Virus record (IMG/VR): IMGVR_UViG_2925939204_000003
Span: 1-32,291 of that record
From: a virus
Lineage: Duplodnaviria; Heunggongvirae; Uroviricota; Caudoviricetes
Length of the DNA stretch: 32,291 nucleotides
Strand: one strand, 5' to 3'
Shown: positions 14,867-21,698 of the stretch, piece by piece
Layout: each line of letters opens with the position of its first letter
Position numbering within the stretch: the stretch's first letter is position 1
Notes under the pieces: generated by a model
Seen by the model: the letters and a program-made list of their open reading frames with translations, nothing else
What the model was told of the DNA's origin: nothing
Database searches by the model: none
Position numbers and translations under genes: made by a program

Positions 14867-15082
14867 ATGAAATCCATGGACAAAATTTCAACGGGCATTG
14901 CCTACGGCACCTCCGCAGGCAGTGCTGGCTACTGGTTTTTACAGTGGCTTGATCAGGTCAGTCCGTCACAGTGGGCTGCGATTGGTGTACTGGGGAGTCT
15001 GGTTCTGGGCTTCCTGACTTATCTGACAAATCTGTACTTCAAAATCAGAGAAGACAAGCGTAAGGCTGCACGGGGAGAGTAA
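14867..15082 (+). CDS. S: Class II holin, phage 21 S21 pinholin type, dual-start (antiholin from M1, holin from M4 at 14876)
   Basis: [29 protein letters not shown].. matches recalled S21; two TM segments; Met-Lys-Ser-Met dual start. Confidence 0.8.
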
Positions 15083-15086
15083 TTCA

Positions 15087-15401
15087 ATGACTCAAAACTA
15101 TGAACTGATTGTGAAAGGGATCCGCAATTTTGAGAATAAAGTTACGGTAACTTTAGCGTTACGGGACAAAAAACGCTTTGACGGTGAAATTTTTGGCTTG
15201 GACATCTCGCTGGACCGTGTTGAAGGTGCCGCGCTGGAGTTTTATGAGGCAGCAGCCAGAAGGAGCATCAGACAGGTCTTCCTGGATGTTGCTGCCGGGT
15301 TATGTGAAGGGGACGAGCTGTTGCCAGAAACGCGCCCCTGTTCAGAGGCGCGGTATACCATAAAAATTAACAGTTCTGATAACTCGATTACAGGTTGTTA
15401 G
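15087..15401 (+). CDS. Hypothetical protein inserted between holin and endolysin
   Basis: 104 aa ORF with SD GGAGAG 8 nt upstream; no recognised family. Confidence 0.5.
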   Translation: MTQNYELIVKGIRNFENKVTVTLALRDKKRFDGEIFGLDISLDRVEGAALEFYEAAARRSIRQVFLDVAAGLCEGDELLPETRPCSEARYTIKINSSDNSITGC

Positions 15402-15456
15402 CTTTTTGCAGTTGGCTTTCCAGTATCTTTCATTGGTAGCATCCTGATAAATATCC

Positions 15457-15990
15457 ATGAGCGCAAAAATCAAATACGGCCTGTCAGCTGCTGTTCTGGC
15501 GCTGATTGCTGCAGGCGCGTCTGCTCCTCAAATACTTGACCAGTTTCTGGATGAAAAAGAGGGTAACCACACTACGGCATACCGCGATGGTTCCGGTATA
15601 TGGACCATCTGTCGTGGTGCCACAATGGTGGATGGTAAGCCCGTCATACCGGGAATGAAGCTGTCGAAGGAAAAATGCGACCAGGTTAACGCTATTGAAC
15701 GTGATAAGGCGCTGGCATGGGTGGAGCGCAATATTAAAGTACCACTGACCGAACCACAGAAAGCGGGTATAGCGTCATTCTGTCCCTATAACATTGGCCC
15801 CGGTAAGTGTTTCCCGTCGACGTTTTATAAGCGGCTGAATGCCGGTGATCGTAAGGGCGCATGCGAGGCGATTCGCTGGTGGATAAAAGATGGTGGGCGC
15901 GATTGCCGCATACGTTCAAATAACTGCTATGGACAGGTTATTCGTCGTGACCAGGAAAGCGCATTAGCCTGTTGGGGGATAGATCAGTGA
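15457..15990 (+). CDS. R: SAR (signal-anchor-release) endolysin, lysozyme family
   Basis: N-terminal Ala/Gly-rich segment [17 protein letters not shown] followed by lysozyme-like domain; pairs with pinholin. Confidence 0.8.
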
Positions 15991-16454
15991 GCAGAGTCGC
16001 AGCGATTATTTATACTCTGGTTATCTGCACCATCGTCTGCCTGTCGTGGGCGGTCAATCATTACCGTGATAACGCCATCGCCTACAAAGAACAGCGTGAT
16101 AAAAAAGTCAGTGAGCTGAAGCAGGCGACTGCCACCATCGCTGACATGCAACAGCGTCAGCGTGATGTTGCTGCGCTCGATGCAAAGTACTCGAGAGAAT
16201 TAGCCAATGCGAAAGCTGAAAATGAAACTCTGCGCGCTGATGTTGCCGCTGGTCGTAAGCGCCTGCGGGTCAATGCCAGTTGCTCCGCAGCCGTGCGTGA
16301 AGCCACCGGACCCACCAGCGTGGATAATGCAACCAGCCCCCGACTGGCAGACACCGCTGAACGGGATTATTTCACCCTCAGAGAACGGTTGATGACGATG
16401 CAGAAGCAACTGGAAGGGGCACAGCTATACATTCGTGAGCAATGTCTCAGATAA
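15987..16454 (+). CDS. Rz: Rz-like inner-membrane spanin
   Basis: GTG start overlapping endolysin stop (GTGA) with SD GGGGGA; N-terminal TM then coiled-coil-like region. Confidence 0.7.
16207..16392 (+). CDS. Rz1: Rz1-like outer-membrane lipoprotein spanin embedded in Rz in +1 frame
   Basis: Lipobox VVSA-C and Pro-rich mature region; entirely inside Rz. Confidence 0.65.
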
Positions 16455-16594
16455 AAAACGGCCAAGGATAATCCGCTAAAGATTCGCCGGTGGCGAAAGA
16501 GAGCCAAGGTGTCAACCTACGCTATTACTTATGATAATGCAACAGACGAAGCGGGACATTCAGGTGCATAACAAAGCGTGGCAGGTGAACTGCA

Positions 16595-16622
16595 AACCTG
16601 AAAAGGCGCAAAAATCTGCGCC
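16595..16622 (-). terminator. Intrinsic terminator downstream of GNAT gene (minus strand)
   Basis: GGCGCA-gattt-TGCGCC followed by TTTTCAGGTTT on minus strand. Confidence 0.5.
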
Positions 16623-16632
16623 AGAATGGTAG

Positions 16633-17118
16633 TTATTTTGTGGTTTTGAAAAGTTTCATGTACTGATTGATAGGTTTTCCTGAGTAAGAATCTGTCCCTG
16701 GCTCAGGAGTATCAGATAAAACTTTTGCAGCTAATTTGTTGGAGGCTTGATTACCAACCCCGACAATAGCCTCTACATAGAATTCATTGAAGGAATTTCT
16801 AAATCCGTATTGCATTTCTTCAATGCTGGCGATGAGAAGTTGAGTACCGATGCCTTGCGCTTTATATTCATCGGCTACTGCATAGCCAACGCCAAAGCAT
16901 GGTTTACCTTCAACAAACTCTGCAGGGACATATATAGCAACACCTTTAACATTTTCTCCTTCAAAGAATGCATAAGTAAACCGTGGCGTACCCTCTGCAT
17001 CATCCAAAAGCACCTTCATATTTGGGTGAACTATGCATGGTGAAGGCTTAATCAGACCATTAGAAAAGGCGTATTGAAAACTAATTAATGAGTCTGTTGG
17101 ATCAACGAGTTCTGGCAT
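16633..17118 (-). CDS. GNAT family N-acetyltransferase (cargo gene, opposite strand)
   Basis: 161 aa; acetyl-CoA binding motif AQGIGTQLL; AT-rich; flanked by AT-rich intergenic DNA. Confidence 0.6.
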   Translation of the reverse strand: MPELVDPTDSLISFQYAFSNGLIKPSPCIVHPNMKVLLDDAEGTPRFTYAFFEGENVKGVAIYVPAEFVEGKPCFGVGYAVADEYKAQGIGTQLLIASIEEMQYGFRNSFNEFYVEAIVGVGNQASNKLAAKVLSDTPEPGTDSYSGKPINQYMKLFKTTK

Positions 17119-17362
17119 TTTGAGTCCTATGTATTTTGATATAAGCGATTCAACATACTACTTTCTTACGTTTAATTCTTTAACATTAACGAGCCAGGAT
17201 ACGAAATTTTGAAAAAGAGTAAAGTTTTTAATAATTCATTCAAAGCATATCGCATGTGCACATCTAAGAAAGGCTTTCAGCTGTGAGCCTGGGTAAACCG
17301 TAAACTTTCGGCGACTCTGCCGTGCGACAGGTTCACGTCTAACATGTCTAAAAGGAAGAGTT

Positions 17363-17563
17363 ATGAAGTTTCAGGCCGCTAAACTGTATCGTGGTAAACA
17401 TTTCGCAGGGTATGGGATTGCAGTTGATGGTGAGTTACTGGAAGGGCAGCTTTCCGCCAGGACAGAGTCACGCGGAGGCGAGCCACCAACAGTCACTGTG
17501 ACTTTCAGACTGACAGCAGAACATATCGAGAATCAGCCCGTCATTCAACTGAACAGGGGGTGA
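17363..17563 (+). CDS. Hypothetical small protein
   Basis: 66 aa with SD AAGGAAG; no family recognised. Confidence 0.45.
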   Translation: MKFQAAKLYRGKHFAGYGIAVDGELLEGQLSARTESRGGEPPTVTVTFRLTAEHIENQPVIQLNRG

Positions 17564-17570
17564 GGTATTT

Positions 17571-18122
17571 ATGCCATCACGAATCCCACGCGCCTGCCGT
17601 AAGCGTGGATGTGCAGGTACAACCACAGACAGTTCTGGTTACTGCGATAAACATCGTGGCGAAGGATGGGTACAGCATCAACGCGGACTGAGCCGCCACC
17701 AGCGTGGCTACTTCCTGCACTGTTACCGTCAGTTAATGAGGATAGATGTGATGACTAAAAATATCCGTAATCTGGCACTGGCAGCGATGTCGGGGTTTCG
17801 CCATAAAACTGTTGATGTGCCTGAATGGGAAGGGGCAACGGTTGTATTACGGGAACCTTCTGCAGAAGCCTGGTTGCGCTGGCAGGAGATCGTTAAAGCA
17901 AAAGATGATGAGACACCGTTATCCGTTGCGGAGCTCGCCCGCCGAAATCTGGAAGCGGATGTTGAACTGTTCATCGATGTTCTGTGTGATACCGGACTGC
18001 AACCTGTATTTTCAGTGGATGATCGTGAACAGGTGATTGCCGTGTATGGCCCGGTGCATGCGCGGCTTCTTCGGCAGTCTCTGGAACTGATCAGTGATGC
18101 CGGCGAGGTTAAAAAAAAGTAG
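17571..18122 (+). CDS. Tail assembly chaperone G-like, with N-terminal Cys-rich extension; alternative start 17751
   Basis: Directly upstream of tape measure; ends in slippery A-AAA-AAG then TAG; both 17571 (SD GGTGAGG) and 17751 (SD GAGGA) are plausible starts. Confidence 0.55.
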   Translation: MPSRIPRACRKRGCAGTTTDSSGYCDKHRGEGWVQHQRGLSRHQRGYFLHCYRQLMRIDVMTKNIRNLALAAMSGFRHKTVDVPEWEGATVVLREPSAEAWLRWQEIVKAKDDETPLSVAELARRNLEADVELFIDVLCDTGLQPVFSVDDREQVIAVYGPVHARLLRQSLELISDAGEVKKK

Positions 18123-18424
18123 CGCTTCCGGGGATGCGTTTTCTGATGATGCTGGCGCTCAGGATGGGGCGCACATTGTCAGAGTTACGCCGGGAAATGT
18201 CCGCATCAGAAATCATGATGTGGGCAGAGTTTGACAGGTTCAGCCCGCTGGGGGACGAACGGGCTGATATCCGGGCTGCCCAGATTGTTTCAGCTGTTTA
18301 CGGTGCGCAGGGGGTCAAAGTGCCACTGAATGATGCGCTTCTTCAGTGGGAGAAGGAGCAGACAGAAGGCGTATCAGATCCATTTGCTGGACTGGAAAAC
18401 GCGCTTTTAATAGTGTCTCAGTGA
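17571..18424 (+). CDS. Tail assembly chaperone GT-like fusion made by programmed -1 frameshift at 18113..18119
   Basis: The -1 frame is open from the slippery site through ORF 18134..18424, mirroring lambda G/GT. Confidence 0.5.
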
Positions 18425-18432
18425 GTCAACAT

Positions 18433-18458
18433 AACCGCTTCGGCGGTTTTTTTTCGTC
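18433..18458 (+). terminator. Terminator-like hairpin between GT and tape measure genes
   Basis: AACCGC-TTCG-GCGGTT followed by TTTTTTTT. Confidence 0.45.
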
Positions 18459-18464
18459 CGGAGA

Positions 18465-21400
18465 ATGAGTGTGGCGACATTACGTGAACTGATTATTAAA
18501 ATCTCGGCAAATTCCCGGTCATTCCAGTCAGAGATCTCCCGGGCTTCGCGTATGGGGCAGGATTACTACCGTACCATGCAGAACGGAGGCCGGCAGTCCG
18601 CTGCTGCATCCCGTGAAATGCGGCGTGCACTGGCAGAAGTGACGGATCAGATAAATACAGCTAAATCTTCGGCACTAAACATGGCGGGGGCATTTGCCGG
18701 GGCTTTTGCTACCGGTCATCTTATTTCTCTCGCCGATGAGTGGAATTCAGTAAATGCCCGTCTGAAGCAGGCCTCACAGTCCAGTGATGATTTTCAGTCA
18801 TCACAGCGTGAATTAATGGCGATCAGCCAGAGAACGGGGACGGCTTTTTCTGATAACGCCAGCCTTTTTGCCCGCTCTGCAGCTTCCATGCGGGAGTATG
18901 GTTACAGTTCTGAGGAGGTACTGAAAGTCACCGAGGCGATCTCCACGGGCCTGAAATTATCCGGTGCCAGTACAGCAGAAGCCAGTTCGGTGATCACGCA
19001 GTTCAGTCAGGCTCTGGCGCAGGGAGTGCTGCGCGGTGAAGAGTTTAACTCGGTGAATGAGAACGGCGATCGTGTTATTCGTGCTCTGGCTGCGGGAATG
19101 GGAGTTGCCCGTAAGGATCTGAAGGCCATGGCGGATAACGGAAAGTTGACCGCCGATAAGGTTGTTCCTGCACTGATTAGTCAGCTTGGGGCATTACGTG
19201 ATGAATATGCGGCAATGCCTGATACGGTTTCATCCTCTGCAACCAAAGTTGAAAACGCCTTTATGGCCTGGGTTGGTGGTGCGAACGAGGCAAGCGGAGT
19301 GACGAAGACGCTCTCCGGTGTGCTGAATGGTCTTGCAGGCAATATTGACACCGTGGCAACCGCTGCCGGTGCTCTGGTTGCCGTCGGGGTAGCCCGATAT
19401 TTTGGCAATATGGCGTCGTCTGCTGGATCTGCAACTGCCGGATTAATTACTGCAGCCAGAAACGAAGTGGCTCTTGCTGAAGCGCAACTTCGGGGGACAC
19501 AGATAGCAACCGCCAGGGCGCGTGCGGCGGTTTATCGTGCGCAACAGGCGGTTGTTGCTGCTCGCGGTACCGAAAGGCAGGCCGCAGCAGAAGCGAAGCT
19601 GACAGCTGCCCAGGCGTCACTTACCCGTAATATTGCGGCCAGAACAGCGGCACAGACAACGCTGAATACTGTCACGTCAGTGGGGAGTCGTCTGTTAAGT
19701 GGTGCGCTGGGGTTGGTTGGTGGTGTGCCGGGACTCGTCATGCTGGGGGCGACGGCCTGGTACACGATGTATCAGAATCAGGAGCAGGCCAGAGAATCTG
19801 CACGCCAGTATGCCGCAACAATCGACGAAATTCGCCAGAAAACGTCGGCAATGTCGCTTCCTGAAGCGTCAGATAATGAGGAAAAGACGCGGCAGGCACT
19901 TGATGAGCAAAACAGGTTAATTGACGAGCAGAAAAGTAAGATTAAATCCTTACAGGAAAAAATTGCTGGCTATCAGTATGTGCTGGCAAACCCGGGCTGG
20001 ACAACCGATAACGGTTTTATGATTAACCACATGACGTCGGTAAAAACTGTCACAGAAGGGCTTGCAGAAGCAACAAATCAACTGGCAGTTGAACAGTCCC
20101 GTCTCACACAAATGCAGGGCAAAGCGCAATCCATTCAGGATGTGCTTGCCGGGCTGGAGGAGCGACGGGTGGCGTTGATCCGTCAACAGGCCGCGGAACA
20201 AAACAAAGCGTATCAGTCCCTGTTGATCATGAATGGGCAGCATACCGAGTTTAATCGCCTTCTCGGGCTCGGTAATGAATTACTTCAGCAGCGACAGGGG
20301 CTGGTGAATGTACCGTTACGGCTACCACAGGCAACCCTGGATGATAAACAGCAGACTGCACTGAATAACAGCGAGCGCGAACTGGCTCTGTCCCGCCTGA
20401 AGGGGGAAGCCCGTGAGCGTGCCCGCCTGGGTTATGCTGCGGATGATCTCGGCTTTGTGGGAGAGGCGTATCAGACAGCCAGACAGAATTATATCAATAA
20501 CTCACTGGATGCCTGGCGAAATAACCAGGCAAATAAACCCAAAGCGCATAAAAAGACCGAAGCGGAAAAAACAGAAGATATTTATAAACGGCTGATTAAA
20601 CAGCAAAAAGAACAAATAGCACTGGCAGGGCAGAATACTGAACTGGCTAAGATGAAATATCAGGTCAGTCAGGGCGAATTATCAACCCTGTCAGAAGCGC
20701 AGAAAAAAACGCTTTTGCAGAATGCAGCACTCATCGACCAGAAAAAGATTCGTGAGCAGCTTGCTGCGTATGAAAGCAGCCTGGCGGACAGTAATGCCAG
20801 TGCCCGGGCATCTGACGAAGCGCAGTTGCTGGGATATGGTGAAGGCTCACGGATGCGTGAACGACTCCAGGAAATGTGGAGTATCCGGCAGGCGTTTGAG
20901 CAGAAAAATAACGAGCTGCTGAGACAGTATCAGGCCGGAGAAATTGAAGAAGCTCTGTGGAAACAGGAGAAAGAACTGAATAAAAAATATCTGGAAGAGC
21001 GTCTCAGCGATCAGCAGGATTATTATGCAAAGGCCGATGCTTTACGTAATAACTGGAATGCCGGACTCCAGGAGGGACTGACCAACTGGGCAGACAGTGC
21101 CACCGATTATGCTTCACAGGCGGCAGATGCTGTCGTTTCCACGATGGACGGGCTGGTATCAAATATTTCCGATGCACTGGCCGGGAATGTTGTGGACTGG
21201 AGGAACTGGGGGAGTTCAGTTCTCCGGGAAGTTTCAAAAATTCTGATGAATGCAGCCATTGTTAACGGACTGAAATCACTCTCCGGTGCCGGAGGGTGGC
21301 TTGGTACGGTCGGCGGATGGATTTCGGGGGCAGTGGCAAACGCAAAAGGTGGTGTTTACACATCGGCAAATCTGAGTGCTTACAGTAACACTATTGTGGA

Positions 21401-21698
21401 TACACCGACGTATTTTGCTTTTGCGAAAGGTGCCGGGTTGATGGGCGAGGCCGGGCCCGAAGCAATCATGCCACTGACACGGGCAGCGGACGGCTCTCTT
21501 GGGGTCAGGGCCATTGGAAATGTGAATGGTGGCGGTGGATTTGTTTATTCTCCCGTGTATCACATCAGCATTCAGAATCAAGGGAGCAATGGCGAGATAG
21601 ATGCGCGCTCAGCCAGGGGACTGGTGGATCTGATCGACAGCAGGGTTGTGTCAATTATGCAGTCATCGCGTCGGGATGGAGGATTGTACAGTGCCTGA
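18465..21698 (+). CDS. Tail tape measure protein (lambda H-like)
   Basis: 1077 aa, coiled-coil-rich, C-terminus RRDGGLYSA like lambda H; start could be GTG 18471 (better SD spacing). Confidence 0.85.
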   Translation: MSVATLRELIIKISANSRSFQSEISRASRMGQDYYRTMQNGGRQSAAASREMRRALAEVTDQINTAKSSALNMAGAFAGAFATGHLISLADEWNSVNARLKQASQSSDDFQSSQRELMAISQRTGTAFSDNASLFARSAASMREYGYSSEEVLKVTEAISTGLKLSGASTAEASSVITQFSQALAQGVLRGEEFNSVNENGDRVIRALAAGMGVARKDLKAMADNGKLTADKVVPALISQLGALRDEYAAMPDTVSSSATKVENAFMAWVGGANEASGVTKTLSGVLNGLAGNIDTVATAAGALVAVGVARYFGNMASSAGSATAGLITAARNEVALAEAQLRGTQIATARARAAVYRAQQAVVAARGTERQAAAEAKLTAAQASLTRNIAARTAAQTTLNTVTSVGSRLLSGALGLVGGVPGLVMLGATAWYTMYQNQEQARESARQYAATIDEIRQKTSAMSLPEASDNEEKTRQALDEQNRLIDEQKSKIKSLQEKIAGYQYVLANPGWTTDNGFMINHMTSVKTVTEGLAEATNQLAVEQSRLTQMQGKAQSIQDVLAGLEERRVALIRQQAAEQNKAYQSLLIMNGQHTEFNRLLGLGNELLQQRQGLVNVPLRLPQATLDDKQQTALNNSERELALSRLKGEARERARLGYAADDLGFVGEAYQTARQNYINNSLDAWRNNQANKPKAHKKTEAEKTEDIYKRLIKQQKEQIALAGQNTELAKMKYQVSQGELSTLSEAQKKTLLQNAALIDQKKIREQLAAYESSLADSNASARASDEAQLLGYGEGSRMRERLQEMWSIRQAFEQKNNELLRQYQAGEIEEALWKQEKELNKKYLEERLSDQQDYYAKADALRNNWNAGLQEGLTNWADSATDYASQAADAVVSTMDGLVSNISDALAGNVVDWRNWGSSVLREVSKILMNAAIVNGLKSLSGAGGWLGTVGGWISGAVANAKGGVYTSANLSAYSNTIVDTPTYFAFAKGAGLMGEAGPEAIMPLTRAADGSLGVRAIGNVNGGGGFVYSPVYHISIQNQGSNGEIDARSARGLVDLIDSRVVSIMQSSRRDGGLYSA

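Follow-up and report, generated by a model that had tools for sequence, protein, structure and literature searches.

A conserved -1 frameshift of the G/GT type in phage tail assembly chaperone genes was reportedly described by Xu, Hendrix and Duda in 2004. In phage lambda, where neither protein is retained in the virion, tail assembly depends on a fixed ratio between the short product, G, and the frameshifted product, GT. This ratio, about 30:1, is critical for the assembly of the tail, in which the binding partner of lambda G is the tape measure protein and that of T the major tail protein (PMC5009743). Equivalent pairs are recorded in other phages: HK97 gp14 is annotated as "translated due to a -1 frameshift", and the HK106 record has a joined CDS.

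Antonov et al. (2013) described a cluster, named "phage tail assembly chaperone", of 41 genes with similarity to a protein of HK97, and two cassettes of this cluster were tested with a GST-MBP reporter in E. coli (PMC3711429). Frameshifting reached 7 +/- 0.79% in E. coli for the cassette with A AAA AAG TAG, and 6 +/- 0.61% for the one with G GGA AAG CCG TAA (PMC3711429 Table S2). The 7% cassette is an exact match to phage YYZ-2008 (locus L085), an Stx-type E. coli prophage that shares 64-67% identity with the locus studied here. No heptamer is more shift-prone in E. coli than A_AAA_AAG, the single tRNA-Lys pairing weakly with AAG, and NNA_AAG alone is enough for the slippage of a single tRNA (PMC5009743).

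We analysed a stretch of viral DNA of 32,291 nucleotides (IMG/VR record IMGVR_UViG_2925939204_000003), called hereafter the window. The first-pass annotation had proposed that a programmed -1 frameshift joins a G-like and a T-like frame around position 18,113, and the gene identities, the gene order, the frame relation and the in-phase heptamer all support it. The site is very probably a programmed -1 ribosomal frameshift of a siphovirus chaperone pair of the HK97 gp13/gp14 type, functionally equivalent to lambda G/GT. The kind of shift, the family and the motif are already known, and a homologue with A AAA AAG TAG has already been measured.

Genes and frames around the slip site

The G-like tail assembly chaperone gene is located on the plus strand at 17751-18122 (123 aa, then TAG) and belongs to the HK97 gp13 family. 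Its product matches Pfam family PF06222 (Phage_TAC_1) over its full length, with an E value of 7.7e-57 and 191 bits for a cut-off of 25. The start codon, ATG 17751, stands 8 nt after a Shine-Dalgarno-like GAGGA (17738-17742, plus strand) and agrees with the annotated 372-nt CDS (123 codons) of 100% identical E. coli copies. The longer ORF that is called mechanically at 17571-18122 (183 aa) is a chimera, and exceeds the real G-like gene.

The T-like ORF of 96 codons (18134-18424, plus strand) is called both mechanically and by PGAP in identical copies, and it matches PF06223 (Phage_tail_T, E 3.5e-19, 69.4 bits for a cut-off of 25.9). It is followed on the plus strand by the gene of an HK97-type tape measure protein (18465-21698, 1077 aa; PF06120 Phage_HK97_TLTM with E 1e-93, PF20155 and PF09718), which is, by analogy, the putative partner chaperoned by G and GT. 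Homologues of tail proteins M and L are found further downstream, and those of K, I and J also remain. On the other side of the pair, intact copies with 100% identity have the major tail gene immediately before G.

Between the T stop and the start of the tape measure gene, a terminator-like hairpin, AACCGCTTCGGCGGTT, is followed by TTTTTT (window 18433-18456). At this place HK97 and HK106 have a moron (gp15) and an annotated terminator, where the window has the hairpin only.

Direct reading of the 3' end of the G-like gene on the plus strand gave, in the zero frame, ...GGC GAG GTT AAA AAA AAG TAG CGC TTC CGG GGA TGC... The slippery heptamer A AAA AAG (18113-18119, plus strand) is in the X XXY YYZ phase of the G-like ORF, and forms part of a T-A8-G run (18110-18119, with A8 at 18111-18118). 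The zero-frame stop TAG (18120-18122, plus strand) abuts the 3' end of the heptamer, a "shifty stop" context, and a TAA (18110-18112, plus strand) shuts the -1 frame just 5' of it. The -1 frame reads GGT TAA AAA AAA GTA GCG CTT CCG GGG ATG... and stays open from 18113 for 103 codons, up to the stop (18422-18424); these codons include the 96-codon ORF. The stretch open in both the zero and the -1 frame coincides with the 7 nt of the heptamer, bounded by the TAA, and therefore a -1 shift can be productive only at this A AAA AAG. The first-pass annotation had described a G-like ORF ending with AAA AAA AAG TAG and a -1 frame open from the heptamer through the next 96-aa ORF, and direct reading and frame analysis agree with this description.

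The frequency of the heptamer was dropped as evidence: 12 copies of A AAA AAG occur in the window for 7.5 expected, a number that 8 of 100 shuffles reach and that is not significant alone. A test of geometry was used instead, which called for no fewer than 100 open codons in the zero frame before the heptamer, and for a -1 frame that runs on past the zero-frame stop for 80 codons or more. Out of 296 X XXY YYZ heptamers counted in the window in any phase and on both strands, a single one passes, the one at 18113. The locus shows the traits of the G/GT type: two overlapping ORFs placed before the tape measure gene and, in intact copies, after the major tail gene, the second ORF in the -1 frame, and a slip sequence in phase within the overlap.

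The predicted GT, join(17751..18119, 18119..18424), would be 224 aa long, with residues 1-123 from G joined through VALPG to the product of the 96-aa ORF. Its trans-frame segment in the -1 frame (18119-18424, plus strand) comprises the VALPG linker, the T domain and the TGA stop. The conceptual fusion carries both domains, PF06222 at residues 1-123 and PF06223 at residues 151-219.

Identity to HK106 is 65% for G and 63% for T; with HK97 gp13/gp14 the pair shares about 62-65%. HK97 gp13/gp14 and HK106 gp12/gp11 have in common with the window the PF06222 and PF06223 families, the -1 direction, a position of the G/T pair just upstream of an HK97-type tape measure gene, and a shift placed at the homologous C-terminal Lys codon of G. 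They differ from it by the slip sequence, CGG GAA AAG located five codons before the stop, whereas the A AAA AAG of the window abuts the stop. In HK97, moreover, the moron gp15 intervenes between gp14 and the tape measure gene, and the window has no moron there. The YYZ-2008 cassette and the window share the 10-nt core A AAA AAG TAG at the homologous position. They match at 51 of 75 positions, the whole core included, and differ in the flanks at the other 24 of 75; the A run is 6 long in the cassette (AGA AAA AAG) versus 8 in the window (GTT AAA AAA AAG).

The likeness to lambda that the first-pass annotation had put forward holds for the arrangement and for the T domain, PF06223, but not for the G family. 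The window G belongs to PF06222, whereas lambda G matches only PF06894 (Phage_TAC_2), and a BLASTP comparison of the two proteins revealed no similarity (E 8.9). In both lambda and the window, a heptamer stands in phase close to the end of G, the shift is low (predicted in the case of the window) and no strong stimulator is known. The lambda heptamer is G GGA AAG and not A AAA AAG, a difference that had been correctly pointed out, and it is located five codons before the G stop, whereas that of the window abuts the stop. By analogy, the role of the window pair is presumed to be that of lambda G/GT.

A truncated prophage

Two segments of the window have 100% identity to E. coli EBJ003, 16400-17710 to its positions 212196-213506 and 17708-18500 to its positions 221567-222359, with 3 nt common to both at the junction (17708-17710). 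The intervening segment of EBJ003, about 8.06 kb and 12 genes, is missing from the window. It contains the rest of an HNH endonuclease gene, the genes of both terminase subunits, a hypothetical protein, the portal, the protease, the major capsid, the connector and closure proteins, a gp10-like and a gp17-like protein, and the major tail protein. At the junction, the initial 140 nt of the HNH endonuclease gene run directly into the final 29 nt of the major tail gene; this yields the chimeric 183-codon ORF (17571-18122), which continues in frame into the G-like gene. The junction was found in none of 5,426 complete E. coli genomes. The window is left without any of the head genes and without the major tail gene.

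Two other features lie upstream of the junction. A GNAT acetyltransferase gene (window 16633-17118, minus strand), with the lysis cassette (14867-16454) on one side and the packaging/HNH region on the other, resembles moron-type cargo and is present in intact relatives too. Just upstream of the HNH remnant, a 66-codon ORF (17363-17563) corresponds to a hypothetical protein in identical E. coli prophages, and has no Pfam match.

Because the major tail gene, partner of T, and the head genes are missing, the frameshift signal of this window is probably an intact relic that was recently orphaned. We lean towards the reading that the signal is intact but idle, the prophage having lost the genes whose products would be the targets of GT, so that it would have no current function here. 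The argument for it is the terminase-to-major-tail loss at 17708-17710, by comparison with the otherwise identical EBJ003 prophage. However, the G/T segment shares 100% identity with intact copies and so exhibits no decay, the homologues of the tape measure protein and of M, L, K, I and J are still present, and another prophage in the host cell could provide a compatible tail tube. This reading concerns the usefulness of the signal and not its mechanism, and it is compatible with a programmed ribosomal frameshift.

Stimulatory elements and proposed mechanism

In the E. coli dnaX gene the shift amounts to about 50%, helped by a Shine-Dalgarno-like element placed 10 nt before the heptamer and by a stem-loop a few nt after it. 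The dnaX heptamer is identical to that of the window, A AAA AAG, but the outcome differs: the protein is extended in the window and truncated in dnaX. The downstream hairpins that stimulate frameshifting are usually spaced by 5-9 nt from the slip site. The site had been called "dnaX-type" in the first-pass annotation, and this is accurate for the heptamer, whose shift relies on the single tRNA-Lys of E. coli (PMC5009743), but not for the Shine-Dalgarno-like stimulator nor for the spaced stem-loop.

Upstream, no Shine-Dalgarno-like element was found about 10 nt before the heptamer. The sole candidate is GAGGT (18105-18109), 3 nt away, and it was rejected as an upstream stimulator of the family, being absent from the Stx-type, Proteus and most other relatives. 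Downstream, no stem-loop is located 5-9 nt after the heptamer, the predicted hairpins beginning 1 nt and 21 nt after it. The fold of the single sequence is stable (-55.2 kcal/mol, z = -3.4), with mis-spaced stems, and RNAalifold on 23 relatives gave zero consensus pairs downstream of the site. A 6-bp stem, GCGCUC/GGGCGC, is recurrent; it shows neither covariation nor compensatory change, and it coincides with a conserved peptide, LALRMGR. A downstream stimulatory RNA was rejected on the spacing of the stems, the null result of RNAalifold and the lack of compensatory changes. A low, unstimulated shift of a few percent would be the expected behaviour.

The mechanism that we propose is as follows. 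Most ribosomes would start at 17751 and stop at the TAG at 18120, giving the 123-aa chaperone. A minority would slip one base back on A AAA AAG (18113-18119), presumably at a few percent, judging from the roughly 7% obtained for the homologous cassette that has the heptamer and the stop in common with the window. The tRNA-Lys, single in E. coli and with a preference for AAA over AAG, would re-pair in the -1 frame, either by a tandem slip in the P and A sites or by a slip in the P site while the adjacent TAG waits for its release factor. Translation would then proceed through GTA GCG CTT CCG GGG ATG... down to 18422-18424, and produce the 224-aa GT with the junction ...GEVKKK-VALPGMRFLM... If the analogy with lambda holds, the tape measure protein would receive a coat made of G and of the G part of GT, and the T domain would recruit the major tail protein.

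Conservation of the site and rival routes to GT or T

A tblastn search with the GT fusion retrieved 235 phage records, and in 198 of them the two parts were adjacent in two frames. Segment 17708-18500 shares 99-100% identity with numerous prophages of E. coli and with induced phages such as PhiR49_2. T-A8-G-TAG was invariant in all 80 near-identical viral contigs, while nearby synonymous positions varied.

More distant relatives were collected as a species-level set of 80 loci, one genome per species, found via the alignment of T; 79 were usable. The site was A AAA AAG in 46 of these loci (31 with the stop directly after), A AAA AAC in five, G GGA AAG in five and G GGA AAC in one, so that a canonical heptamer stood at the homologous place in 57 of 79. 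The 22 others had NNA AAG only, 13 of them with the stop directly after. A_AAG or A_AAC was in phase at the homologous position in 79 of 79 loci, with a -1 relation throughout, and a stop immediately 3' of the site was present in 49. The length of the A run ranged from 3 (17 loci) through 4 (11), 6 (11), 7 (32) and 8 (7) to 9 (1 locus).

Individual phages illustrate this diversity. Stx-type prophages and Proteus phage Pm34 have A AAA AAG TAG positioned as in the window, and Burkholderia phages phi1026b and phiE125 have A AAA AAG ten codons before the stop. A Halomonas phage has A AAA AAA / A AAA AAC, LMessi and ECP1 have G GGA AAG as in lambda, HK97 and HK106 have CGG GAA AAG, and Klebsiella phages have GCA AAG TAA. 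In the HK97-type relatives (L086, L095 and the L096-L105 set), CGG GAA AAG places G GAA AAG in phase, which is non-canonical with respect to X XXY YYZ; the Klebsiella- and Pantoea-type members have just GCA AAG, with TAA directly after. The invariant of the whole family is A_AAG, and not a heptamer.

One locus (L110:1180-1200), from Candidatus Symbiopectobacterium endolongispinus, has nine A at the homologous site instead of eight. The additional A brings T into the frame of the C-terminal part of G already in the DNA (...AEIAKKKVTQPGMQFLM...), so that the junction predicted for the trans-frame product is reproduced. A different frame encodes the N-terminal part of G; the gene resembles a pseudogene, and the symbiont genome is a degenerating one.

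The switch of frame was inspected at the level of codon positions, by computing the mean column entropy per codon position over 42 distinct sequences with the stop-adjacent architecture. Upstream of the site, positions 1, 2 and 3 of frame 0 had 1.02, 0.92 and 1.39 bits. For the eight linker codons that separate the site from an invariant F-L-M motif, positions 1, 2 and 3 of frame -1 had 0.69, 0.85 and 1.46 bits. Peak variability is thus at the third codon position of the 0 frame before the site, and of the -1 frame after it. Within the linker, V-x-x-P-G/x-x-x-F-L-M, the Pro is kept in 41 of 42 sequences and the Met of F-L-M is invariant. The Met of ATG 18134 is present in 20 of the 42 and replaced by Thr or Ile in the rest, and in this set the sequences devoid of it have no ATG, GTG or TTG before the linker Pro. 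Since the Pro is conserved and no start codon precedes it, the linker can be read only by ribosomes that come from G in the -1 frame.

The survey bears on several ways in which GT or T could be produced. In the first, the essential signal of the family would be, in place of the tandem heptamer, the slip of the P-site tRNA-Lys on A_AAG during a pause of the ribosome at the neighbouring stop codon (a "shifty stop"), and slippage of the polymerase on A8 would be a second layer in the lineage of the window. It is suggested by the 13 of 79 loci that keep NNA AAG and the stop without a heptamer, and by the stop placed directly after the site in 49 of 79; we nevertheless hold it to be rather unlikely. 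If it were true, the G:GT ratio would be set by competition with the release factor, which for the TAG of the window means RF1 only.

Alternatively, GT could arise mainly by transcriptional slippage, RNA polymerase adding one A in A8 (18111-18118) so that an A9 mRNA reads from G into T. The resulting protein would be identical (VKKK-VALPG). The window lineage has eight consecutive A, and runs of at least 8 A are listed as slippage-prone, other cassettes having given 10% with 7 A, 40% with 9 A and 63% with 11 A (PMC3711429). High-efficiency slippage is also documented for runs of 9 A/T (PMC5009743). However, what the family conserves is a phased A_AAG or heptamer and not a long A run, as the lengths of 3 to 9 among the 79 relatives attest. 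In addition, the homologue with 6 A gave 7% and the G GGA AAG member 6% (PMC3711429), and the shift is -1 in every relative, the pattern expected of ribosomal frameshifting. We consider it improbable that GT is made mainly in this way, and slippage of RNA polymerase would be an add-on at most, in the lineage of the window.

Even less credible is the production of T as a free protein of 96 aa (or 92 or 91 aa, from ATG 18146 or 18149) by termination and reinitiation after the G stop, the heptamer being incidental. ATG 18134 does lie 11 nt past the TAG, T is annotated as a gene of its own, by PGAP and by phage annotators, in identical copies, the methionine of FLM is invariant, and Klebsiella relatives without a canonical heptamer have an ATG soon after the stop. 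Yet ATG 18134 exists in just 20 of 42 distinct relatives, and the Pro two codons before it is conserved together with the periodicity of the -1 frame, so that translation in the -1 frame takes place ahead of every ATG. There is no usable Shine-Dalgarno sequence either: GGGG abuts ATG 18134 with zero spacing, and is 12-15 nt away from ATG 18146/18149. The phased A_AAG or A_AAC of 79 relatives out of 79 also argues against an incidental heptamer, and the Phage_TAC cluster is not among the clusters of Antonov et al. that combine internal initiation and frameshifting (PMC3711429). The 96-codon ORF (18134-18424) is probably not an independent gene.

Phase variation through the length of the A run in the DNA was ruled out, exactly A8 being present in 80 of 80 close copies.

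The programmed ribosomal frameshift remains the best explanation of the locus. It is a textbook recoding signal, and its recognition here brings no new biology. Its main practical consequence is for annotation: in the records of 99-100% identical copies, G and T appear as separate genes with no ribosomal slippage, and the 224-aa GT is omitted, both by PGAP in E. coli genomes and in several phage records, so that this product is absent from the public records of identical sequences. For the family as a whole, the survey of relatives points to a slip site that drifts, between A AAA AAG, A AAA AAC, G GGA AAG, G GAA AAG and NNA AAG followed by a stop, around an A_AAG that stays fixed.
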